Shown here piece by piece: positions 3,146-63,743 of a stretch of DNA of 64,000 bases (the first letter of the stretch is position 1; every line of letters begins with the position of its first letter). The stretch comes from Minisyncoccota bacterium. Its GTDB lineage: Bacteria > Patescibacteriota > Minisyncoccia > Phycocordibacterales > Zambryskibacteraceae. The stretch is taken from the NCBI GenBank assembly GCA_020059045.1, contig JAGVCW010000018.1, positions 25,320-89,319 on the forward strand. The letters run 5' to 3'. The notes beneath the pieces are model-generated. The model was not told where the DNA came from and searched no databases. It was given only the letters and a program-made list of their open reading frames with translations. Both the position numbers and the translations under genes were made by a program.

Positions 3146-3234
3146 ATAGTTGAATAAAGAATAGCGAATATCGAGGGTGGAGTAAACATACTCTTAATTC
3201 ATCATTCCTTATTCCTTACTCTTCCTCCGACATC

Positions 3235-4152
3235 CTACAGCCAGTGCCTATGCTTAAAATAAGCAAACATGAGAAGACAGGCAAAAGCCATAATTCCGAG
3301 TATGTACCAGAAATCGTTCGGTGATCCAATGATAGGGACCGAATCAGCTTCAATGGAAAAGATAGCCGCAATAAGTGTTAGTGGGAATGTCACAAACGCC
3401 ATAATAGTTAGCGTTTTCATGATCTCATTTTCCTTTGTAGAAAGTATTGAATTGTTCGTTTCTCGTAGTTCAGCCACAAACTCCAGGTTATTTGTCAGAA
3501 TATTTTGAACCTTTGAGTACTCGTTTATTACGGACTTAATGTGGTGAGAGAAGTATTCTCCAAACATTCTGTGTCCGAACGAATCAAGCGAATCCAGGAT
3601 CTCCCGATGGAAAACTGTTATTTTTCTGAAGTTCAGTAGTTCGCGGCTCACTTCAGAGAGTGCACGAACCATTTCTTTCTCTTTTCCTTCAAATATATTT
3701 TTTTCAATTTTCGAGAGCCAATTATCAATATACTCAAGTTCGTTGAAAAGTGACATATAAATCTCATTTACAATACCAAAGAAGATTTCCCCGGTAATAT
3801 TTTCACCGAATCCCTTATCAAGTATTGTGTTAACCTCTACCACTTTTGCAAACTTGTCTACAGAGTCTATGGTGTCGTAGCGGGTAGTAATGAGGAAGTT
3901 CTTCCCAATGACGAAATCAATTTCCTGTCGGACCTCACTATCAGTATGGCTGTGTTTGAAAGCGGGGAAATGCAGAATAACGTATATATATTGTTTGTAG
4001 AGCTCTACTCTAGATTTGATAGTAGGGGAGATCAGCTCATGAGCAATATCTCTACTTAAAGAGAATTCCTCCATCACACTTCTGATCTCATCTTCTGTGG
4101 GTTTGGTGATATCTATCCAGACTACACCTCTGTAGTTATATCGATTTATCAT
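3235..4152 (-). CDS. CorA-family divalent cation transporter homologue lacking the GMN signature
   Basis: 305 aa with two C-terminal TM helices and a CorA-like C-terminus (LTIMAFVTFPLTLIAAIFSIEADSVP...YFKHRHWL). The position of the canonical YGMNF loop reads FSIEA instead. Confidence 0.75.
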   Translation of the reverse strand: MINRYNYRGVVWIDITKPTEDEIRSVMEEFSLSRDIAHELISPTIKSRVELYKQYIYVILHFPAFKHSHTDSEVRQEIDFVIGKNFLITTRYDTIDSVDKFAKVVEVNTILDKGFGENITGEIFFGIVNEIYMSLFNELEYIDNWLSKIEKNIFEGKEKEMVRALSEVSRELLNFRKITVFHREILDSLDSFGHRMFGEYFSHHIKSVINEYSKVQNILTNNLEFVAELRETNNSILSTKENEIMKTLTIMAFVTFPLTLIAAIFSIEADSVPIIGSPNDFWYILGIMAFACLLMFAYFKHRHWL

Positions 4153-5515: not shown

Positions 5516-5587
5516 GCTGGCAATCGTTTCCCATTGGACAAAGAGCTATTTATAAGTAGTATTAAACCCTAAATAATAAGATTAGGA

Positions 5588-5715
5588 ATCCCGTTAGAGA
5601 CGGTCGGGGTTAAGAGTAATATACAATAGTAATAAGCGTTTAGAGGTCGAAAAAATCATTTAATAAAAAATCTAATCAAGACAGGAATCGAAAGGTTCCT
5701 TGTCTCTAACGGGAT
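5588..5715 (+). repeat. TIR-bounded ~125 bp element, copy 3 (ATCCCGTTAGA ... TCTAACGGGAT), ending in the rplI start codon
   Basis: A perfect 11 bp inverted repeat at 5588-5598 and 5705-5715. The final AT of the downstream repeat is the first two bases of the rplI ATG (5714). An internal hairpin GACAGGAAtcgaaaggTTCCTTGTC precedes the downstream repeat. Related copies are at 26261-26385 and 54938-55062. Confidence 0.7.
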
Positions 5716-6163
5716 GAAGGTAATACTACTAAAAGATGTGCCAAAGATTGGTAAGAAATATGAGGTCAAGAACGTGGCTGAAGGTCATGCTCTCAATTTT
5801 CTTATACCCCGGGGTCTAGTTGAGACTGCCACAAAGAGCGCTTTAGAGAAGGTTAAGACTTACAAGACTCAAGATGAAGCAAGGAGGAAAATACAGGAAG
5901 ACCTACTTCTGAAAAATATTGCGGATCTCGAGGGTGTAAAGATAGAGATGAGCGAAACAGCGAATGACAAGGGTCACCTTTTTGCAGGTATTCACAAAGA
6001 AGAGATAATCCCAGAAATTTCAAAACAGACTAAGCTTGAGATTCTTCCAGAGCACCTTCTGCTTGATAAGCCTATTAAGTCTGTCGGTGAACATATAATA
6101 GAAGTCAAAATCAGAGATACTCACGCCAAATTCACTCTAATTGTAAGCGCAAAGACAGATTAA
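5714..6163 (+). CDS. rplI: 50S ribosomal protein L9
   Basis: 149 aa, MKVILLKDVPKIGKKYEVKNVAEGHALNFLIPRGL..., canonical L9 N-terminus. Confidence 0.9.
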   Translation: MKVILLKDVPKIGKKYEVKNVAEGHALNFLIPRGLVETATKSALEKVKTYKTQDEARRKIQEDLLLKNIADLEGVKIEMSETANDKGHLFAGIHKEEIIPEISKQTKLEILPEHLLLDKPIKSVGEHIIEVKIRDTHAKFTLIVSAKTD

Positions 6164-6214
6164 ACTAACAAGCGGCAAAGTTATTATAGGCTAAACATAT
6201 AAAAGAAAGACCCG

Positions 6215-6650
6215 GAGCGAAACGCTCACGGGCCCGTACTGCATGTATGCAAAGTCCAATTTCTGGACTGAAAGATCTTAACCCGCTTGCCGAACACCTG
6301 GCTCTCGGCCGGCAAGCGGGTCGTGTTCAGAGGAAGCTCGAGTGCTGCCTCGTCATGGGAGTGGATGCGGTTTCACTCCGATTACAGTGTGCCCGGCCGG
6401 GGCTCCGCATCAGCGCTTCCACCTCGTTGGAGACGGTCGCTTTCCCAAACACTTATTAGACCCTTGCGCCGTTTTTTACCAGCACGCTTAGGTGGTTTGA
6501 GCATGACTCGACAGCCTTCCTTTGAACACCCACCTCGGTTTCTTCCCCGGCTGTGAGGGAGGACTTCTGACTACCCCGAGGTGTCACTTACTTGTTTAAC
6601 CTGCCCTGGAGCTTCTGCCGGGACCCAAAGGGACCCCACAGGCGCTAGCA
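6215..6650 (-). ncRNA. rnpB: RNase P RNA (bacterial type), probable
   Basis: A GC-rich ~430 nt non-coding block. The minus strand carries GCTCCAGGGCAGG (compare E. coli GCUCCAUAGGGCAGG), an upstream GTCCCGGCAGAAGCTCC (P4 5' strand-like), and a 3' ACGACCCGCTTGCCGGCC (compare ACAGAACCCGGCUUA). A terminator-like hairpin plus U-run lies at its 3' end (about 6210-6235). The only ORFs here are short and overlapping. Confidence 0.55.
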
Positions 6651-6800
6651 GATATTTGTTCCTACATGTCCTGTAACTAGCTCCAGAGCATTCTATTATC
6701 TATTATAGCATGCCCACTTTTTTTGTCAAGCAATTTAGCATGAAAATAGAAAAAACTTTGCTAGACAATCAAAATAAGCCTTAAAACAAAGCTTTTTTCA

Positions 6801-6849: not shown

Positions 6850-7065
6850 AAAAAAAGATCCTGCAGGTTGCATTCGCCTCCTCTTTACTCCTCACTCTTA
6901 ATTCTCTGCTCCTAATTCTTTATTCTCCATTCCTCATTCTACGATTCATCATTCATTCTTCTCCCTTTCCACTGCACTCATTATTTTAGTAGTTAGATCA
7001 ATTAGAAATTCTCTCCCTTACTCCTCATTCTTCCCCCGCTCTTGCTACGTTGTTGGTTGTCGGTG
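6850..7065. repeat. polypyrimidine (+ strand) ATTCNT/TCCTCATTC-rich tract, locus A, containing a 39 bp core shared with locus B (6979-7017)
   Basis: Low-complexity CT-rich + strand run (tcctcattc, attcat repeats). The core cattattttagtagttagatcaattagaaattctctccc matches 37848-37886 at 35 of 39 positions. Confidence 0.6.
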
Positions 7066-16977: not shown

Positions 16978-17508
16978 ATGAATTATGTCTATCACGGTGT
17001 TCCGAAACGTATGGAGGGAAATATTCTTCATCCTCTAAGCATTCTAAAAACACAGTTCCCAGAAGTTTATTCTGAAGAAGTTCGTAAATATGCAGGAAGG
17101 GAACATGTAATGGAAAATAGAATTCCGATTTTTAATTGTCTATGGAACGATGTTTTGCATTTTGCGTGTGTACCACCAATTGAATTAAAAAATGCGTTAG
17201 TAGAAGCTGGAATGGCAGAGGCAGTTAAGCTCTCCTTCTATAAAATCGATACGTCTATTCTTGATAAGGAAAACTGTATTGTCTATTTAAACAACAAAAG
17301 AGAAAAAGGTGAACTGATGAGTGAAAGCGATTTTACACAATACGATCAAAATAATTTGAAACGATATTCTATAATTCCCCAGATTGCAAAAGATAAATAC
17401 AAAGAGGCCTATATTGCAGGAAAAACCCCTTTAATGTTTCTCTTTATTCCGCATATCCTTTACCGTGGTTCTGTTAATGTTTCTAGTGCAGAAATTATCA
17501 CCGTTTAG
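16978..17508 (+). CDS. hypothetical protein
   Basis: 176 aa, MNYVYHGVPKRMEGNILHPLSILK..., AT-rich. The family is unknown; an N-terminal YHG...NILHPLSIL motif is noted. Confidence 0.4.
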   Translation: MNYVYHGVPKRMEGNILHPLSILKTQFPEVYSEEVRKYAGREHVMENRIPIFNCLWNDVLHFACVPPIELKNALVEAGMAEAVKLSFYKIDTSILDKENCIVYLNNKREKGELMSESDFTQYDQNNLKRYSIIPQIAKDKYKEAYIAGKTPLMFLFIPHILYRGSVNVSSAEIITV

Positions 17509-25134: not shown

Positions 25135-26262
25135 CTAGCCTTCATGCCTAAGTGCAATCTTGAGTATTTCATCAGCAATTTTCCGGGCTGCATCAGGTTT
25201 TACAAATAATTTCGCTGACTCCTTCATTTTAGATATGATCTCGGGTGCCCCAAGAATTCTTGAAACTTCTGCAAATAAAATATTTCCGGTAAGATTATTT
25301 TCCTCAATTACTTCTGAGCTTCCGGTACGTGCGTAAGCAAAGGCATTTTTCGTTTGATCGTGGCTCACCTCCTCGGGGATAGGTATCATAATGGACGGGA
25401 TGCCCCACGCCGCAACCTCAAATATTGCTGACCCTGCTCTCGATATAACCAAATTTGCTGCTCCAGCAGCCGAACGCAATGTTAGGGCATCGAGATAGCT
25501 GTATGGGCGGTACCTGTCCTTGTGCTCACTTTGAAAGAGTACCGCCTCAGCCACCTTCTTAACTTCCTCAAAGTTTCCTTTGCCAGTCTGATGAACAACT
25601 TGGTACTTCTCTACTAGCCTTGGAAGAACTTCAAGCAGGGCCTCATTTATCCTCTTTGATCCAAGTGATCCGCCAAGTATAAGAATAGTGGAAAGTAGAG
25701 GGTCAAGTTTTAGAAATTCATGAGCATTCGTTGCAAGTGGCATGAAGAATTCCTTCCTAATGGGGTGCCCAGTATGTGCAACTTTCTCCATTGGGAAATA
25801 TGCTGCAGCTTCACCATACGAAACTGCAATCCGGGTTGCAAATTTACCTGCCCATTTACTTACTTTGCCAGGTCGAGTATCTGATTCGTGAATAACAACT
25901 GGAATTCTAAGTATTCTTGCCGCAAATAGTGCTGGGAAACTCGCATACCCTCCCTTGCCAAACACAACATCAGGGTATATCAAGAATATTTCCCAAATGG
26001 ATTTTATAACTCCCCACCCGGTTTTAAACAGGTCAAAGAAGTTCATTATCGAGAAATATCTTCGAATTTTACCAGCGTAGTTCTTCTTGTAAATTATGTT
26101 GTTATTAAAAAGAACTCCCGCATTGTATGGTGAGGGTGACATATAGTAGAGTTCCACATCTACAAGTTTATTTTCTCGGACAATCTGGTTCAGCTCCTCG
26201 GCAATTGCAATAATCGGGTAAAAATGCCCGCCTGACCCCCCTCCTGTAAATAAGATCTTCAT
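25135..26262 (-). CDS. murG: undecaprenyl-PP-MurNAc-pentapeptide-UDP-GlcNAc GlcNAc transferase
   Basis: 375 aa. The N-terminal MKILFTGGGSGGHFYPIIAIAEEL is the GT28 MurG hallmark. Confidence 0.92.
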   Translation of the reverse strand: MKILFTGGGSGGHFYPIIAIAEELNQIVRENKLVDVELYYMSPSPYNAGVLFNNNIIYKKNYAGKIRRYFSIMNFFDLFKTGWGVIKSIWEIFLIYPDVVFGKGGYASFPALFAARILRIPVVIHESDTRPGKVSKWAGKFATRIAVSYGEAAAYFPMEKVAHTGHPIRKEFFMPLATNAHEFLKLDPLLSTILILGGSLGSKRINEALLEVLPRLVEKYQVVHQTGKGNFEEVKKVAEAVLFQSEHKDRYRPYSYLDALTLRSAAGAANLVISRAGSAIFEVAAWGIPSIMIPIPEEVSHDQTKNAFAYARTGSSEVIEENNLTGNILFAEVSRILGAPEIISKMKESAKLFVKPDAARKIADEILKIALRHEG

Positions 26263-26385
26263 CCCGTTAGAAGTAAGGAGTCGTGAGACTCCTGTTTTGT
26301 TAGTATAGTAAATAAAACGCTATCTCGAGTATCTGGCACATACAAATTTATCGTTGTTTTAAAGCACAACCACTTCTAACGGGAT
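26261..26385 (-). repeat. TIR-bounded ~125 bp element, copy 1, oriented so that its terminal repeat ends in the murG ATG
   Basis: ATCCCGTTAGA at 26261-26271 and TCTAACGGGAT at 26375-26385. On the minus strand the sequence reads ...CCTTACTTCTAACGGG-ATG-AAG, the murG start. An internal hairpin CAGGAGTCtcacGACTCCT is present. It shares the blocks GATAAATTTGTAT.TG.CAGAT and TTTTATTTA with copy 2. Confidence 0.7.
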
Positions 26386-26428
26386 GAATCCCGTTAGATC
26401 CTCATTTTAACATATAATTTTGGCACTT

Positions 26429-37799: not shown

Positions 37800-37925
37800 G
37801 CATCAACCCCCCCAAGTATTTATTCATATCATTCGTGGGATCGTATTCATTATTTTAGAAATTAGATCAATTAGGAATTTTCTCCCTTTTTATTCCTCCT
37901 TCATTTTTCCTTATTCTTCCTTCCC
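37800..37925. repeat. polypyrimidine/ATTCNT tract, locus B, with a 39 bp core (37848-37886) nearly identical to 6979-7017
   Basis: The core cattattttagaaattagatcaattaggaattttctccc is followed by ttattcctccttcatttttccttattcttcc. It runs into the 3' end of the histidine kinase ORF. Confidence 0.6.
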
Positions 37926-39578
37926 CGGTATCTCAATATAGAATGTTGAGCCCTTTCCTTTACCATCTGACTCCACCCACACTCGCCCCTTATGTGCCTC
38001 AACCATTTGCTTAGCAACATATAGTCCTAGTCCTGTCCCAGAGACATTTGTTTTGGATGCGTCCTTAGCTCGCGAAAACATTGAAAAGAGCTTCGATGTT
38101 TCCTCAGGTGCTATACCCACACCAGTGTCAGTTATTGAGAACCTAATTATATGATCAGAAGACTTCCCCACAGAAACTGTGATACCTCCTTTTGGTGTGT
38201 ACTTTATCGAATTATCAACAATATTACCTATAACTTGCTTAATCTTACCTCGGTCGGCTCTTACCATGTATTGCCCGGGATTTGCCTTGTACTCAAAGCT
38301 AAGGCCTTTTTTCTCTACATTTGGACGCAGTTCAGCTACTACTTCTCGAGCAAGCACTTCCGCATCAAAGTCTGTTAATTCGTATTTCATTCTTCCCTGC
38401 TCAATTCGTGATACATCAAGGAACTCGTTTACAATTTTAATAAGGCTCTTTGATGATTGATCAATAATACCTATTTGGTCCATGATCTTTGGAGGTACTT
38501 CGCCAAAGTCTCCTTCCAGAAGCATAGAAGCATATCCATCAATTGCTGTCAGTGGAGCTCGAATTTGATGTGATGCAAATGATAAGAACTGGGATTTAAG
38601 CTGATCTAATTCCCTGAGTCTTGTATTCGCCTTCTCTAAGTCTTGTGCAAGCTTCTCTATCCTTTCGCGCTGCTTAATTTCACGTTCAACACTTCTGATA
38701 AGTAGGTACCCGAAAACAAGTGTAAGCAGGACAGTTATGGTATTTAAGATAATGGCAGTTCCTCCATCTATGAATGTATATTGGGTTCCTATAAGTGCAA
38801 CAAGACCAGCAACGAGCATCTGTACTCCCAAAACCTTTATGTTAAAGGCCTGGAACTTGACAATTAAATATGCAAGGAACGCTACAAATACAATCATTCC
38901 AAATAGGCCGTATATTTCAAAAGTATAGTTGCCTGTTCTCTCAGAAATCTGTCCAGCAATGAAGAATGCGAATATGAATCCCAAGATGCCGATGGTTAGT
39001 AGGCTAATCTGTTTTCGTAGCTGACTTTTTGCCTCAAAAAATTTATAAATACCAAACCCCAGAATAATGACAGACAAAATAAGCTTAAGATAAAATACAT
39101 AGCTCAAAAACAAAGGGCTCTCCAGAGCCACACACTCCTGCAGATCATATTCTGTTAAATATGACGTTGTTGGCGCAGCAATAATAATTGGCAAAAGTAG
39201 CAGTGCGAAACCAATCTTTGCAATTATTGGGGCATCCTTCTTTGTAATAAATACATATACAAAATAAAGACACAGTTCAAACAGAAGTACACTGAAAATT
39301 TCAATAGGTGCCCACGAGAACATAAGAACACTTGCCTTATCGTAGTTTATCCAAATTGCAAGATCGAGAAACGCCCATAATGAGAATACCAGACTAATGG
39401 AGAGTAATATTTTGGCCAAAAGGTCCTTTTTGTTTTGTGTGTATACAAAAACTCCTGCCAAAAGTGCAATTATTGCTGTAGGTATGTGCGAGTAATATAA
39501 AAGCTTTAAGAGATTATCGACAAACTCCCCACAGTAGGCGAGGTTCTCTGAAAAGTTGAAATCAATAATTTCTAGCAT
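37911..39578 (-). CDS. sensor histidine kinase with a multi-TM N-terminal sensor domain
   Basis: 555 aa with 6-7 predicted TM helices. The HisKA H-box is FASHQIRAPLTAI, and HATPase_c N/G boxes are present (DNSIKYT, DTGVGI, GTGLGL). Confidence 0.85.
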   Translation of the reverse strand: MLEIIDFNFSENLAYCGEFVDNLLKLLYYSHIPTAIIALLAGVFVYTQNKKDLLAKILLSISLVFSLWAFLDLAIWINYDKASVLMFSWAPIEIFSVLLFELCLYFVYVFITKKDAPIIAKIGFALLLLPIIIAAPTTSYLTEYDLQECVALESPLFLSYVFYLKLILSVIILGFGIYKFFEAKSQLRKQISLLTIGILGFIFAFFIAGQISERTGNYTFEIYGLFGMIVFVAFLAYLIVKFQAFNIKVLGVQMLVAGLVALIGTQYTFIDGGTAIILNTITVLLTLVFGYLLIRSVEREIKQRERIEKLAQDLEKANTRLRELDQLKSQFLSFASHQIRAPLTAIDGYASMLLEGDFGEVPPKIMDQIGIIDQSSKSLIKIVNEFLDVSRIEQGRMKYELTDFDAEVLAREVVAELRPNVEKKGLSFEYKANPGQYMVRADRGKIKQVIGNIVDNSIKYTPKGGITVSVGKSSDHIIRFSITDTGVGIAPEETSKLFSMFSRAKDASKTNVSGTGLGLYVAKQMVEAHKGRVWVESDGKGKGSTFYIEIPGKEE

Positions 39579-47422: not shown

Positions 47423-47451
47423 ACCCCTTATCCCTCCTTATTCCTCATTCT

Positions 47452-48105
47452 TTATTCATTATTCTTCCCTTCATACTCTCCAATCTGAACTTTAGCTGGT
47501 CTCACAAGCTTTCCATTTAGCATATACCCTGCCTGAAACACTCCCTTCACCATATGATCTTCTTCTTTTTTAGTAACAGGAACCATGTTTACTGCCTCAT
47601 GCAGTTTTGGGTCAAATGCTTCACCAAGGGCTTTTATTTTTTCTAAACCATGACTTTCAAGGGCCGCTACTAGTTGGCCAATACTTGATTCCATACCTTT
47701 CCTCCACTCGGGAGGCAACGCCTGCCAGGCGGCCTCATCCTTTCTAGCAATTTCAAAACTATCCAGTGCTGGGATAATATCAGATAGAAGTCCGGCAGTA
47801 GCCCATTTCATAAATGTTTCTCTGTCAGAACTATCTTGCTTACGAAGATTTAGGAAATCTGCCTTATCCTTTTGCCAATTTGTTAGGTATTCCTGCTTCT
47901 CCTTTTCAGCTCTCTTAAGTTTTTCCCTAAGTTTCTTTATGGTTTCCTGCATGGACTCTTCCGCGACAACTGAGTCATCCCTATACGCATCTTCCTCAAG
48001 ATGCGTCGGGCGATCATCCACAGATGATTTAGCCAGATCTGTGTCGGTGTCGACAGTTACGTCATCGGCCTCATGATTTTCGTTTTTATCATCATCTTTT
48101 TTCAT
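47452..48105 (-). CDS. grpE: nucleotide exchange factor GrpE
   Basis: The GrpE fold is clear (coiled-coil plus C-terminal beta domain, ...RKDEAAWQALPPEWRKGME...). The start is probably M at 48105 (MKKDDDKNE). The ORF track extends it to 48195 with a hydrophobic, unlikely N-terminus. Confidence 0.85.
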   Translation of the reverse strand: MKKDDDKNENHEADDVTVDTDTDLAKSSVDDRPTHLEEDAYRDDSVVAEESMQETIKKLREKLKRAEKEKQEYLTNWQKDKADFLNLRKQDSSDRETFMKWATAGLLSDIIPALDSFEIARKDEAAWQALPPEWRKGMESSIGQLVAALESHGLEKIKALGEAFDPKLHEAVNMVPVTKKEEDHMVKGVFQAGYMLNGKLVRPAKVQIGEYEGKNNE

Positions 48106-54822: not shown

Positions 54823-54939
54823 CTATCCCTGCCTCTGCTTATGTCTAGGATTAGCTTTGCATATAACATAAACATAGCCCTTCCTTCGGACTACCTGACA
54901 CTTGGTGCACATCTTTTTTACTGAAGCCTTAACTTTCAT
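54823..54939 (-). CDS. rpmJ: 50S ribosomal protein L36 (below the ORF-track size cutoff)
   Basis: Manual translation of the minus strand gives [38 protein letters not shown] (38 aa, a C-x2-C...C...H zinc ribbon). The ATG overlaps the terminal inverted repeat of repeat copy 2. Confidence 0.85.
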
Positions 54940-55062
54940 CCCGTTAGATGTAAGGAGTCCTTAGACTCCTGTCTTGCTAGGTTATTAAATAAAACTCTAT
55001 TTCGGTCATCTGACATATACAAATTTATCATTATTCTTTACCTCGACTACATCTAACGGGAT
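54938..55062 (-). repeat. TIR-bounded ~125 bp element, copy 2, oriented so that its terminal repeat ends in the rpmJ ATG
   Basis: ATCCCGTTAGA at 54938-54948 and TCTAACGGGAT at 55052-55062. On the minus strand it reads ...CCTTACATCTAACGGG-ATG-AAAGTT. An internal hairpin CAGGAGTCtaagGACTCCT is present. It is about 75% identical to copy 1. Confidence 0.7.
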
Positions 55063-55149
55063 TCATCCCACAATATAATCTAATCAAATATACGAATTAA
55101 GATTGTACATGAGATAGTATTATAGTCAACAAAGAGTGGTATGGTTGAT

Positions 55150-55175
55150 ATTTCCGTCGGGAAGCTTCCGGAAAT
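55150..55175. promoter_or_regulatory. 26 bp near-perfect palindrome (operator-like) just upstream of the 55185 gene
   Basis: ATTTCCGtcGGGAAGCTTCCgGAAAT, centred on AAGCTT and ending 10 nt before the GTG start. Confidence 0.35.
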
Positions 55176-55184
55176 AATGCTACT

Positions 55185-55649
55185 GTGCTACAAATAAACA
55201 GGACCCTCCACCTAGAGGTAGCTGTGCAAAGACGTTACTACGCAATTATTCTTTTGTTGACGCTTGTTGGTCTCCTAGCAACAGCTCTGTTTGGATTAGT
55301 TCAAACGCCTGAAGAAGTGTTAGGGGCTCTTGCTTTAATAGGCACATTTTGTACCTTGGCAATCTACAACTTTCCGCATAATCGTCAATTACGACTTCAT
55401 AGGGAAATGAAGTTTGTTCTTGAGGAGATTCGTTTCATTGATAGCGAGATCGCTAACCTAGAAATCAGCAAATGGCGAATTAAAGCAGAGTACCCTATTG
55501 GTAGATCTCAAGCTCTACCACAAATATCTTGGTACCAAGCATGGAACCACAAGGAGAGAATTAGAGAATTAAAGGCAAGAAAACCAGAACGCGTTGAGAG
55601 ACTTTTCGCGCTTGTGATGAATTCCAAAATACCACTTACAATCGATTAA
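55185..55649 (+). CDS. hypothetical 2-TM membrane protein inserted between infA and rpmJ on the opposite strand
   Basis: 154 aa with a GTG start, two TM helices and a charged C-terminal helix. It is antisense to the flanking conserved ribosomal operon. Confidence 0.45.
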   Translation: MLQINRTLHLEVAVQRRYYAIILLLTLVGLLATALFGLVQTPEEVLGALALIGTFCTLAIYNFPHNRQLRLHREMKFVLEEIRFIDSEIANLEISKWRIKAEYPIGRSQALPQISWYQAWNHKERIRELKARKPERVERLFALVMNSKIPLTID

Positions 55650-55669
55650 TGAGTGGTTTTTTTAATTTC

Positions 55670-55891
55670 TTAGAGTCTTCTAATAATTCTTCCTTTACCA
55701 CCATATGGATCAATTTCTACTTCTACACTATCACCGACAAGAATACGGATTTTATGCATACGCATTTTGCCCGATAGATACGCGAGGAATTCCTCTGCAC
55801 CGTTTTCAGGCATTACTTTAAACAAAATATTTGGGAATGCTTCGGTTACTTTTCCTATAATTATTTCTTGTTTTTTTGTTGGGTCAGGCAT
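55670..55891 (-). CDS. infA: translation initiation factor IF-1
   Basis: 73 aa S1-like OB fold, ...[51 protein letters not shown]... Confidence 0.9.
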
Positions 55892-62070: not shown

Positions 62071-62916
62071 CTAGCCAAAGAGAGTTTCCTTAGTTGATTC
62101 GCCCTTTGTTTCCGATTTTAAATTTCTATTTTTCCCTTTTTCATTATTATCTATTGCATTTCCCCTCATCACATCTCCGAGAGATTCTACATAACCACAA
62201 TAATCACATTCCTCACCCGCCTTCGGAATTCTTCCGTCCATTAGGCATGTTTTCATTTTGCTAATAGTTTTTGGTATCCAATCTGTGTTTCCCTTGTATG
62301 GGATTATAGTTACATCAAATTCTAGTTTGCCATCAAGTGCCTTTTTGTCAGTTTTACCATTCACATATACAAAGTAGCCCGTATCTGAAACTTTAAATTT
62401 ATTTTGTTTGAAGAGCCATTGGTATATCTCCATCTGTCTCTTGTACTGTATCTTCCACTCATCATCAAGTGTAATCTCTTCGTCCTTACTTGTTGCTTTG
62501 TAATCTACAATGATTAATTCTTCCTGTGGACTTACCCACACATCATCCACTCCTCCACGAATAATGAGATTATTTTCCTTATCATGAAACGATATGCCCC
62601 TGCGTAATGCATCACGCCACTCTTCCATTCGCGAGTCCTGAAGTGGCACCGCGTCAATTCCGTATGATTTCATTAGTGGGTGCACAGTCTTCTCGGCTCT
62701 ATGAATGTCAAATTCTTTCTTAAGTAGTGTGTCCACTGCATTGTTAAGTGTCAGAGGAAAACTTGCAGGCCTTCCAACACCAAGTCTCACATCAAGATAA
62801 AAGCATCTTGGACATTGAATAAAGAGGTCTATTTTTGAGCGAGACAACCTAAATGGCTCAGTTGCATTTGGGTCGAAGAGATTCCTTGTTCTTCTAGGAT
62901 TATAGTACTTACTCAT
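62071..62916 (-). CDS. Cas4/RecB-like PD-(D/E)xK nuclease with an Fe-S cysteine set (stand-alone)
   Basis: 281 aa with an N-terminal CPRC. The motif GGVDDVWVSPQEELIIVDYK matches D...E.VDYK. C-terminal C...CDYCGY completes a 1+3 Cys arrangement typical of Cas4/AddB nuclease domains. Confidence 0.6.
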   Translation of the reverse strand: MSKYYNPRRTRNLFDPNATEPFRLSRSKIDLFIQCPRCFYLDVRLGVGRPASFPLTLNNAVDTLLKKEFDIHRAEKTVHPLMKSYGIDAVPLQDSRMEEWRDALRRGISFHDKENNLIIRGGVDDVWVSPQEELIIVDYKATSKDEEITLDDEWKIQYKRQMEIYQWLFKQNKFKVSDTGYFVYVNGKTDKKALDGKLEFDVTIIPYKGNTDWIPKTISKMKTCLMDGRIPKAGEECDYCGYVESLGDVMRGNAIDNNEKGKNRNLKSETKGESTKETLFG

Positions 62917-63743
62917 TGAAGATTTTTAATCTCGTCATACACAAGTTTAGCCTTAGCATCGCTAAAGCCAATAGATTTTAAAATACTTGGATCCTCGATT
63001 AGGGTCCTACACAACACAATCTCTCGAGAAAGTAACATTCTCTTCTGACTTCCAGACAGGTGCGTTAAGCAAGTAAGTGGATGAAGCCCACTATCCTCTA
63101 TCATTTCCTGTAGGTTCCCCTTTTTGGGATAATTCCATCCAATTAGTTTAAGACCCTTGCATTCTGCATAGCGTATTGCCGTATCAGTAAACTTTGTATT
63201 AGTTATGAGCCACCCTTCATCTAGATGCCTTGGTCTACCATAATCGTGCATTACTTCCTTAAGATCATCCATCCTTGCTTTCACGTATAGTGCCACCTTT
63301 ACATCTGACTTTAATCCTATTTCATTATGAAATTTAGCTTCAGCCATTATGAGCTTATTCTCATTCCAAGCCACCACGTCTACCTCATGAGACACACAAC
63401 CACCCATTACTATCTCATCAGTTTTAACCTCATAACCTTTTTCCTTAAGTACAGACCCTATGTAATCCTCAAAGGGAAACCCTGATGGGCCAAGTTCTTG
63501 TATTGCACGCCTAAGAGAATACTTCACCGCTGCAGGTCGTAGCCTTTTGTGCAATAGAAACAGCGCATGTTTGTATATCTGCGATGTTGCCATCCCATCT
63601 GTAATCTCAAGTGAGATGTGCTCTGTGAGATCCTCCGCGAGCTTCTTATCTGCTCCGGCCCTCACGAGAGAAGCTTCTAGTTTACTTCCATCAAATGGTT
63701 CAGACTTACCACTTGCTTTTACAACAGTAATTTCTGGTTGCAT
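62913..63743 (-). CDS. ATP-cone domain fused to an Mrr-like restriction endonuclease catalytic domain
   Basis: 276 aa. The N-terminal VVKASGKSEPFDGSKLEASLVRAG fits the ATP-cone pattern. The central FEDYIGSVLKEKGYEVKTDEIVMGGCVSHEVDVVAWNENKLIMAEAKF fits Mrr_cat (D...EAK). Confidence 0.6.
   Translation of the reverse strand: MQPEITVVKASGKSEPFDGSKLEASLVRAGADKKLAEDLTEHISLEITDGMATSQIYKHALFLLHKRLRPAAVKYSLRRAIQELGPSGFPFEDYIGSVLKEKGYEVKTDEIVMGGCVSHEVDVVAWNENKLIMAEAKFHNEIGLKSDVKVALYVKARMDDLKEVMHDYGRPRHLDEGWLITNTKFTDTAIRYAECKGLKLIGWNYPKKGNLQEMIEDSGLHPLTCLTHLSGSQKRMLLSREIVLCRTLIEDPSILKSIGFSDAKAKLVYDEIKNLQ

Follow-up and report, generated by a model that had tools for sequence, protein, structure and literature searches.

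The start codon of rplI, the gene for ribosomal protein L9, is built into one end of a palindromic element in the 64,000-nucleotide stretch of a Minisyncoccota bacterium genome analysed here (assembly GCA_020059045.1, contig JAGVCW010000018.1, positions 25,320 to 89,319; this whole stretch is hereafter called the window). By direct reading, ATCCCGTTAGAGAC (5588-5601) and GTCTCTAACGGGAT (5702-5715) are exact reverse complements, and the two strands form a closing helix that we call P1. Its 12-bp core pairs CCCGTTAGAGAC (5590-5601) with the exact reverse complement GTCTCTAACGGG (5702-5713), and an AT/AT extension brings the helix to 14 bp (5588-5601 with 5702-5715). The rplI ATG occupies positions 5714-5716, and its A and U are the final two pairs of the helix. 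An inner hairpin, P2, lies just ahead of the 3′ strand of P1, and the 140-nt rplI segment has a folding energy of -38.1 kcal/mol (z = -4.98 against dinucleotide shuffles). An earlier note on this DNA had described termini shared by three copies, a 12-bp closing helix and an inner hairpin before the ATG, and both reading and folding confirmed this architecture. The features of the locus are as follows.

5535-5562, plus strand: promoter-like TGGACA-16-TAGTAT 5′ of the element, from a consensus scan with 2 sites against 0.9 expected, which is not evidence of function
5584-5587, plus strand: AGGA flush with the 5′ side of P1, at the place of the duplicated ATGN of most copies (direct reading)
5588-5601, plus strand: 5′ strand of P1, the left terminal inverted repeat ATCCCGTTAGAGAC; positions 1-11 are the family-wide terminus and positions 12-14 covary
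5602-5677, plus strand: AT-rich variable interior without family-wide structure (alignments; no consensus pairs by RNAalifold)
5678-5686, plus strand: AAGACAGGA block, comprising junction nucleotides and the first bases of the P2 5′ strand; family equivalent (T)ACGGAAA
5683-5700, plus strand: inner hairpin P2, AGGAATC-GAAA-GGTTCCT, 1 nt ahead of the 3′ strand of P1 (fold)
5702-5715, plus strand: 3′ strand of P1, the right terminal inverted repeat GTCTCTAACGGGAT, which ends in the A and T of the rplI start (reading and fold)
5714-6163, plus strand: rplI, ribosomal protein L9, 149 aa (open reading frame; homologues with Pfam Ribosomal_L9_N and Ribosomal_L9_C)

The rplI element is the third of three copies in the window, where a covariance model run with filters off found exactly three (E = 2.5e-15, 5.2e-14 and 4.8e-13) and no relic copies. 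Allowing two mismatches or fewer, the 12-mer terminus matches the window eight times, against 2.67 +/- 1.5 in shuffled sequence, and none of 100 shuffles reached eight; the only exact matches are the two arms of the rplI copy. The other copies, and a solitary arm beside one of them, are listed here.

26261-26385, minus strand: copy 1, ending in the murG ATG (26262-26260); fold z = -5.2; covariance model
54938-55062, minus strand: copy 2, ending in the ATG of rpmJ (ribosomal protein L36); fold z = -4.5; covariance model
26388-26398, minus strand: additional lone arm next to copy 1, reading TCTAACGGGAT on the minus strand (tandem comparison)

The three copies have in common their termini, the position of the hairpin and an A(A/G)ACAGGA block. 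The rplI copy was correctly singled out by the earlier note as the divergent one, with an interior identity of 0.62-0.69 to copies 1 and 2, compared with 0.78 between those two, and as keeping a common block: its AAGACAGGA aligns with AAGACAGGA in copy 2 and with AAAACAGGA in copy 1. A duplicated ATGA 5′ of the element is kept only in copy 2 among the window copies (55066-55063). By comparison with tandem arrays in other genomes, the solitary arm at 26388-26398 reads as the remnant of a second, truncated copy. In total, the element occupies 3 of the roughly 62 genes of the window, a high density. For the L9 and L36 proteins of the window, no exact-protein record was found. At copy 2 (55063-55670), infA and rpmJ, which are usually neighbours, are about 730 nt apart; between them lie copy 2 and an opposite-strand ORF of 154 aa with a GTG start (55185-55649) and no Pfam match.

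A scan of one genome per species with the pattern ATCCCGTTAGA-N90-120-TCTAACGGGAT returned at least 119 stretches from about 104 assemblies, counted by accession prefix; the copy statistics given below refer to the 133 copies in the scanned loci (0.93 Mb), oriented by the flanking ORF. Copies are 112-142 nt long, with shorter ones of 73-105 nt as well, and the family has a terminal inverted repeat of 14 bp, ATCCCGTTAGARRY ... RYYTCTAACGGGAT. Nearly all carriers are labelled as Parcubacteria/Paceibacterota lineages (Kaiser-, Nomura-, Yanofsky-, Wolfe-, Zambryski-, Lipton-, Jorgensen-, Harrison- and Moranbacteria, and others). Levyibacteriota and Kazan are represented by one record each, the generic labels "Saccharibacteria" or "Patescibacteria" are frequent, and two bins are labelled WOR-3 and Omnitrophota. 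Three copies (L046, 1169-1282; L051, 5438-5556; L067, 5514-5652) have ATAAA flanks in place of ATGNA and abut no start codon; two of them sit in the WOR-3 and Omnitrophota bins, and the L067 copy lies between a TATAAT box and a ribF ATG located 5 nt downstream. These copies suggest either a broader target (ATRNA) or contamination of the bins.

Searches for known RNAs returned nothing at the element: no window match reached the gathering score in Rfam 15, none overlapped the element at E <= 10, and a scan of the window for tRNA and transfer-messenger RNA (tmRNA) was empty. The TIGR-Tas arrays of Parcubacteria are tandem arrays that have no relation to the element. Nor is the element described in the literature that was searched in full text, coverage of which was incomplete, such that an earlier description elsewhere is possible. 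The rplI element is a member of a small, non-coding palindromic family (about 75-140 nt) that is widespread among the ultra-small Patescibacteria (the candidate phyla radiation, CPR) and apparently undescribed.

The defining feature of this family, which the earlier note had missed, is its position on the start codon: the start is duplicated, and the A and T of the downstream copy come from the 3′ repeat. A G completing an ATG directly follows the element in 128 of 133 copies, and 119 of those 128 ATGs open an ORF of at least 60 aa. Ahead of the 5′ arm, an ATG is found at -4 to -2 in 98 of 133 copies, and the same four bases stand on both flanks in 97 (the upstream-flank counts being 75 for ATGA and 19 for ATGG). 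In most copies, the direct repeat is 5 nt long, ATGNA, with no leftward extension, and its fifth position is A in 112 of 119; the right-hand repeat overlaps the last two bases of the inverted repeat, which leaves the exact boundary of the element ambiguous. The right ATG is composed of the last inverted-repeat bases and the duplicated bases. Ahead of the left, original ATG, about half of the copies have a -10-like hexamer at a distance of 6-12 nt, others an SD-like (Shine-Dalgarno-like) GGA or GGAG, and others again the end of the preceding gene. In L010, L012, L047 and L078, tandem arrays share the junction GGGATGAATCCC, which shows that the rebuilt ATGNA can itself serve as a target.

This placement is almost exclusive. 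Within the 0.93 Mb of loci, ATGRA sites number 329 at start codons, 3751 within ORFs and 962 at other noncoding positions, the last count being an over-estimate in which small genes are included; 96% of copies are at start codons. When 90 copies were checked for a frame continuing upstream of the left ATG, only one had it open, and that one was an alternative frame of another gene; no copy among them lay at an internal methionine codon, where ATGRA outnumbers the start codons 11 to 1. If only coding insertions were selected against, a large intergenic fraction would be expected. Either start regions are recognised at insertion, or only those copies that become locked between a gene and its signals escape deletion. 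A conserved product of an upstream ORF was considered and rejected: the frame opened by the left ATG always begins M(N/D)PVR because the arm is fixed, its length ranges from 6 to 49 aa with no conserved length or stop, and it ends at the TAA of the 3′ arm in only 25 of 98 cases.

Comparison with related genomes, taken as the closest relatives with a contig on record, revealed empty sites at rplI. In L120 (67% identity) and L121 (63%), the ctpA-rplI order is the same as in the window, and the spacers, of 35 nt and 56 nt respectively, have no element; in L122 and L123 (64%), rplI follows clpB, its ATG overlaps the clpB stop codon and, again, no element is present. The empty sites read ..cgaggATGAAAGTA.., ..agataATGAAAGTA.. 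and ..cagtATGAAAATT.., which indicates that the rplI copy of the window is lineage-specific. Its left flank, ttAGGA|ATCCCG, equals ttagg-ATG-a minus the ATG. The upstream ATG of this copy was probably lost after insertion (ttagg[ATG]a), leaving AGGA flush with P1, and this AGGA (5584-5587) is possibly a Shine-Dalgarno remnant that P1 would carry next to the AUG.

The family has also been amplified within genomes. The best within-genome interior identities are 0.98 (L049), 0.95 (L056) and 0.78 (window copies 1 and 2), and, of 34 pairs within genomes, 12 lie above the 95th percentile of the pairs between genomes, compared with 1.7 expected. Across genomes, certain genes are hit recurrently (murG, rplI and topA three times each, pheT four times, and also typA, glyS, rplQ and adk) by different subfamilies or in different orientation, which points to independent insertions. 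The closest pair, in L049 (6577-6698 and 6789-6910; identical in L124 and L126), has its members 212 nt apart and 98% identical. They differ only at a single base pair of a third hairpin, both sides of which are changed (GCCGTT..AACGGC vs GCCATT..AATGGC).

The structure of the element has been maintained through these changes. Because the alignment is anchored at the ends, counts of pairing are free of alignment error. At positions 12-14 of P1, 95-98% of copies are paired, as against 71-75% in shuffles, and these three positions are AT/GC, AT/GC and CG/TA in roughly equal shares. For 55 copies with a recognisable hairpin, RNAalifold returned P1 and P2 and nothing conserved between them. The earlier note had proposed the alignment of more copies as a test of a consistent structure, and one emerged: 98.5% of P1 and P2 cells are paired, compared with 87.3 +/- 0.5 in shuffles and 37-49% in slid controls, 149 cells are changed on both sides against 48 in shuffles, and the covariation score of 0.349 (0.140 in shuffles) was reached by none of 500 shuffles. 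All seven pairs of P2 covary, with AU/UA/GC/CG exchanges, and several changes in variant ends are compensated as well (ACCCCG/CGGGGT, ATCACG/CGTGAT and ACCCCGTTACA/TGTAACGGGGT). In one subfamily, P2 abuts the 3′ strand of P1, with no broken pair in 15 sequences; a coaxial stack of P2 on P1, of about 21-22 bp, is a possible model of this arrangement. Non-standard cells on the sense strand comprise 16 G-U and 8 A-C. An RNA-tetraloop signature in P2 was unconvincing, with GNRA or UNCG in 4 of 27 four-base loops. The selected structure may act as RNA or as single-stranded DNA.

The element also has a polarity. The interior is sense to the gene in about 90% of copies (60 sense against 6-9 antisense when judged by hairpin position; 38 plus/plus against 4 plus/minus pairs in BLAST between interiors). 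Antisense copies keep the duplication and an intact ORF, for example at rplI in L053 and typA in L007. When the interior is antisense, P2 is followed by a T-rich tract and was flagged as terminator-like, which is a possible reason for the orientation bias.

Based on its anatomy, the flanking duplication, the insertion relative to related genomes, the amplification within genomes, the restriction to start codons and the covariation of P1 and P2, we regard the element, with considerable confidence, as a mobile element akin to MITEs (miniature inverted-repeat transposable elements) and REPINs (doublets of repetitive extragenic palindromes) that inserts at start codons and regenerates them. It is short and non-coding, with terminal inverted repeats, a 5-nt target-site duplication and dispersed copies that are alike within a genome, and it is present or absent at orthologous rplI. 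The earlier note had left a choice between a structured RNA under selection and an old MITE family; the evidence supports a MITE-like family whose structure is selected. Insertion at start codons and their regeneration set it apart from other palindromic elements of the MITE and REPIN kind. The proposed course of events is that a trans-acting enzyme would recognise the conserved ends or the hairpin and insert the element at ATGNA at the very start of a protein-coding gene, duplicating five bases. The 3′ repeat, ending in ...CGGG-AT, together with the duplicated G would then regenerate the start codon and leave the ORF intact, and the original start codon, along with its promoter, Shine-Dalgarno (SD) sequence or upstream stop, would stay on the 5′ side.

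In many window genes, a TATAAT-like hexamer stands 5-8 nt ahead of the ATG, often itself preceded by GG or TG (examples are the ATGs at 16978, 28051-, 37911-, 40350-, 41693-, 55891-, 57242- and 62913-). An SD-like tetramer is found at only about a dozen of the 62 genes, and operon-internal genes have A-rich starts without an SD. Judged from these sequences, leaderless mRNAs appear to be in wide use in this genome. In the element, the downstream AUG is paired and lacks an SD. Upstream of the element, a signal exists in 110 of 119 copies: ATG in 102, GTG in 3 and, in 5 more, an upstream gene whose stop codon is no more than 12 nt away. The TGA within the left ATGA doubles as the stop of the upstream gene in 14 copies, and about half of all copies lie in tight operon junctions. 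An internal promoter for a leaderless transcript beginning at the downstream ATG was rejected, as there is no TANNNT within 7 nt of that ATG; TANNNT hexamers are scattered over the AT-rich interiors without a sharp peak, and an internal promoter further upstream in the element is possible.

We favour translational coupling by unmasking. The element would be transcribed within the mRNA. A ribosome would start at the retained upstream AUG, read M-N/D-P-V-R through the 5′ arm and so open P1; alternatively, a ribosome that has translated the upstream gene would terminate at the helix foot, cover the 5′ arm and open P1. By either route, the SD-less downstream AUG would be freed. In decayed copies such as copy 3, P1 may instead bridge an upstream SD to the AUG, and L9 may tolerate lower expression.

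Several points weigh against this interpretation. The scan pattern fixes 11 terminal bases plus the AT of the ATG, and the invariance of the termini is therefore partly ascertainment; about 40 second copies in the loci are free of this constraint, and roughly half of them have exact ends, the rest having 1-2 changes per arm. A strain-level empty allele was sought at frr in L049, the youngest insertion, and only filled alleles were found. An autonomous partner was not seen: no long element with the same ends was found in the 0.93 Mb of loci, no copy in viral contigs and no transposase or integrase Pfam match among 30 window proteins. Solitary arms were considered as the ends of such an autonomous element and rejected, as every one of them is part of a shorter or degenerate copy. 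Unmasking cannot be general, since neither a start nor a stop signal precedes window copies 1 and 3. The sense bias of about 90% is also adverse, as a plain symmetric transposon would need selection to show it, and the excess of G-U over A-C cells weakly favours structure at the RNA level. The only nuclease-like proteins among the 30 scanned are encoded at 62071-63743 on the minus strand by two genes with a 4-nt overlap, one with a PD-(D/E)XK nuclease domain and the other with Mrr_cat and an ATP-cone, and there is no evidence of a link between them and the element.

Among the closest parallels in known elements are the Correia elements (CREE/NEMIS) of Neisseria, which are MITEs of 100-150 bp with terminal inverted repeats and a short duplication and are co-transcribed as a long hairpin. 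The element described here resembles them in its size, lack of coding capacity, terminal inverted repeats, flanking duplication, number of copies per genome, adjacency to genes and subfamilies with variable interiors. However, the end sequences are unrelated, and the duplication is ATGNA here and TA in Correia elements. The latter are found anywhere between genes, whereas the element here sits on the start codon and rebuilds it. It also differs in having a 14-bp repeat and a separately covarying subterminal hairpin, and no cognate transposase was found in our scans. With REPINs, it shares hairpin-forming palindromes of about 100 nt, compensatory pairing, amplification within genomes and the absence of coding capacity of its own. 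REPINs, in contrast, are extragenic, typically follow genes and are nearly fully palindromic, whereas only the ends pair here and they do so at a start codon. REPINs are also mobilised by a RAYT (REP-associated tyrosine transposase, of the Y1 HUH kind), whose gene they flank, and no RAYT-like gene was seen in the loci or among the 30 window proteins.

The same safe-haven logic is followed by integrating elements that regenerate their target, such as islands in tRNA genes, class C group II introns after terminators and Tn7 at attTn7; here, however, the target is the start codon of many ordinary genes, and the element is non-autonomous and only 0.1 kb long. As for expression, the split ribosome-binding-site hairpins of T4 genes 38 and 25 and MS2-type coupling likewise place a helix between the arrival of the ribosome and a paired AUG, with upstream translation or termination occurring at the foot of the helix. 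In those systems, the helix is a fixed part of one gene, whereas the present case appears to be a mobile element of about 125 nt at many genes. Integron attC sites, with the R″/R′ cores RYYYAAC / GTTRRRY, extrahelical bases and a place 3′ of cassette ORFs arrayed beside intI, were compared as well and rejected: GTTAGAR/YTCTAAC fits the cores only partly, P1 has no bulges, and the element lies 5′ of housekeeping genes with no arrays.

Among the explanations that compete with this one, cutting of the RNA at GGG|AUG is an attractive alternative to unmasking. An endoribonuclease would cut at the 3′ foot of P1 and yield a leaderless mRNA, and the upstream mRNA would gain a protective 3′ hairpin. 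The element would then be a module for RNA processing and stability that benefits the host; transposition would still spread it, and function would retain it. This would suit a largely leaderless genome (with TATAAT 5-8 nt before many ATGs and few SDs), the fact that 128 of 133 copies have the AUG precisely at the base of a helix conserved in sequence, and the location of about half of the copies in tight operon junctions. The module would also work in either interior orientation because P1 is the same in both, and absence from internal codons is as expected. However, the proposal is drawn from sequence, has no candidate nuclease and does not account for the retention of the upstream ATG in about 80% of copies. 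We consider it rather unlikely. A comparably low probability attaches to the more speculative proposal that the hairpin is actively resolved by a mechanism undescribed in bacteria, whether a sequence-specific cut at GGG|AUG that would make any gene leaderless, operon-internal ones too, or a shunt by which a ribosome arriving at the upstream AUG or stop would cross the helix foot to the identical downstream AUG. If true, this would make the element a portable start-codon cassette suited to the leaderless, SD-poor translation of Patescibacteria.

An inverton, in which the inverted repeats are the crossover sites of an invertase and an interior promoter switches the downstream gene, is unlikely, and strongly so. 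Conserved inverted repeats do surround about 100 bp directly upstream of genes, with repeat-to-repeat identity maintained. Extended -10-like motifs occur in many interiors, and both orientations are found, though only between genomes (typA in L007 vs L080; rplI in L053 vs L055). Inversion does not, however, explain the nucleotide-exact ATG junction or the flanking direct repeat, and the whole element is present or absent between relatives. The targets are essential housekeeping genes, the -10-like hexamers have no fixed position, and no invertase was found among the 30 window proteins scanned.

We find it hardly probable that the segment between the ATGNA repeats is spliced out like an intron or hopped over from AUG to AUG, with T4 gene 60, mitochondrial byp elements and cauliflower mosaic virus (CaMV) shunting as analogues of such bypassing. 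In its favour, the hairpin is compact and is bordered by identical take-off and landing codons that its foot brings together, and most copies retain the upstream start context; if removal were precise, the original mRNA would be regained whether the context is leaderless, SD-led or coupled. Were such a mechanism general, however, internal ATGRA insertions should be tolerated; the loci hold 3751 internal sites against 329 at starts, and essentially none of the internal ones is occupied. Additionally, there is no ribozyme core and no Rfam match, window copies 1 and 3 have no upstream ATG, and 125 nt is, to our knowledge, far beyond known hops.

The claim of the earlier note that the element forms a leader of rplI, here in the form of a dedicated cis-regulatory leader (an autoregulatory RNA or riboswitch masking the AUG) of rplI or of ribosomal protein genes, is barely credible: a stable helix (z about -5) does occlude the AUG and copies occur at several ribosomal protein genes (L9, L36, L17, L31, L35 and S21), much as the Rfam ribosomal protein leaders (L10, L13, L19, L20, L21, S15 and others) have a structured 5′ region hiding the start codon, but the element has no Rfam match even at E <= 10, is absent from rplI of the closest relatives and hence not conserved at orthologous rplI, precedes dozens of unrelated genes (murG, topA, pheT, glyS, adk, typA, membrane proteins and others), belongs to different subfamilies at the same gene in different genomes and has a flanking duplication and tandem copies.

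Two further features of the window were noted. Between rplI and rpmA, on the minus strand, lies a GC-rich island (6200-6735; 57-60% GC compared with 36-42% in the flanks) whose promoter matches the consensus TTGACA-17-TATAAT and which terminates in a GC hairpin with a T-run. About 490 nt long, it holds no ORF above 89 aa and folds with -211 kcal/mol (z = -5.0). Rfam gave only a chance-level match on the opposite strand (E = 4.9) and ARAGORN no tmRNA in the island, and the syntenic relative L121 has a 115-aa ORF at this position. The island is a candidate large structured non-coding RNA. Pyrimidine-rich CT repeats (..CTCTTAATTC..TCCTTATTC..) occupy five intergenic places, including 3190-3238, 6880-6942, 37885-37933 and 47433-47481, and are a family unrelated to the start-codon element.

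In practical terms, gene callers may take the upstream ATG (MNPVR...) as the start of an occupied gene or otherwise mis-set its start, and the 22 conserved nt of the ends can serve as a simple marker of the group. The genomes of Patescibacteria are tiny and densely packed with genes, and they offer mobile elements few safe landing places. The genes occupied include essential ones, namely murG in the window and, in other genomes, topA, pheT and ribosomal protein genes. A start codon that is rebuilt and serves as a safe haven would be a new solution for mobile elements. Every copy, moreover, places a 14-bp helix over an SD-less AUG in organisms that seem to depend on leaderless mRNAs, and the family thus amounts to a natural replicated experiment on translation initiation in uncultivated bacteria.

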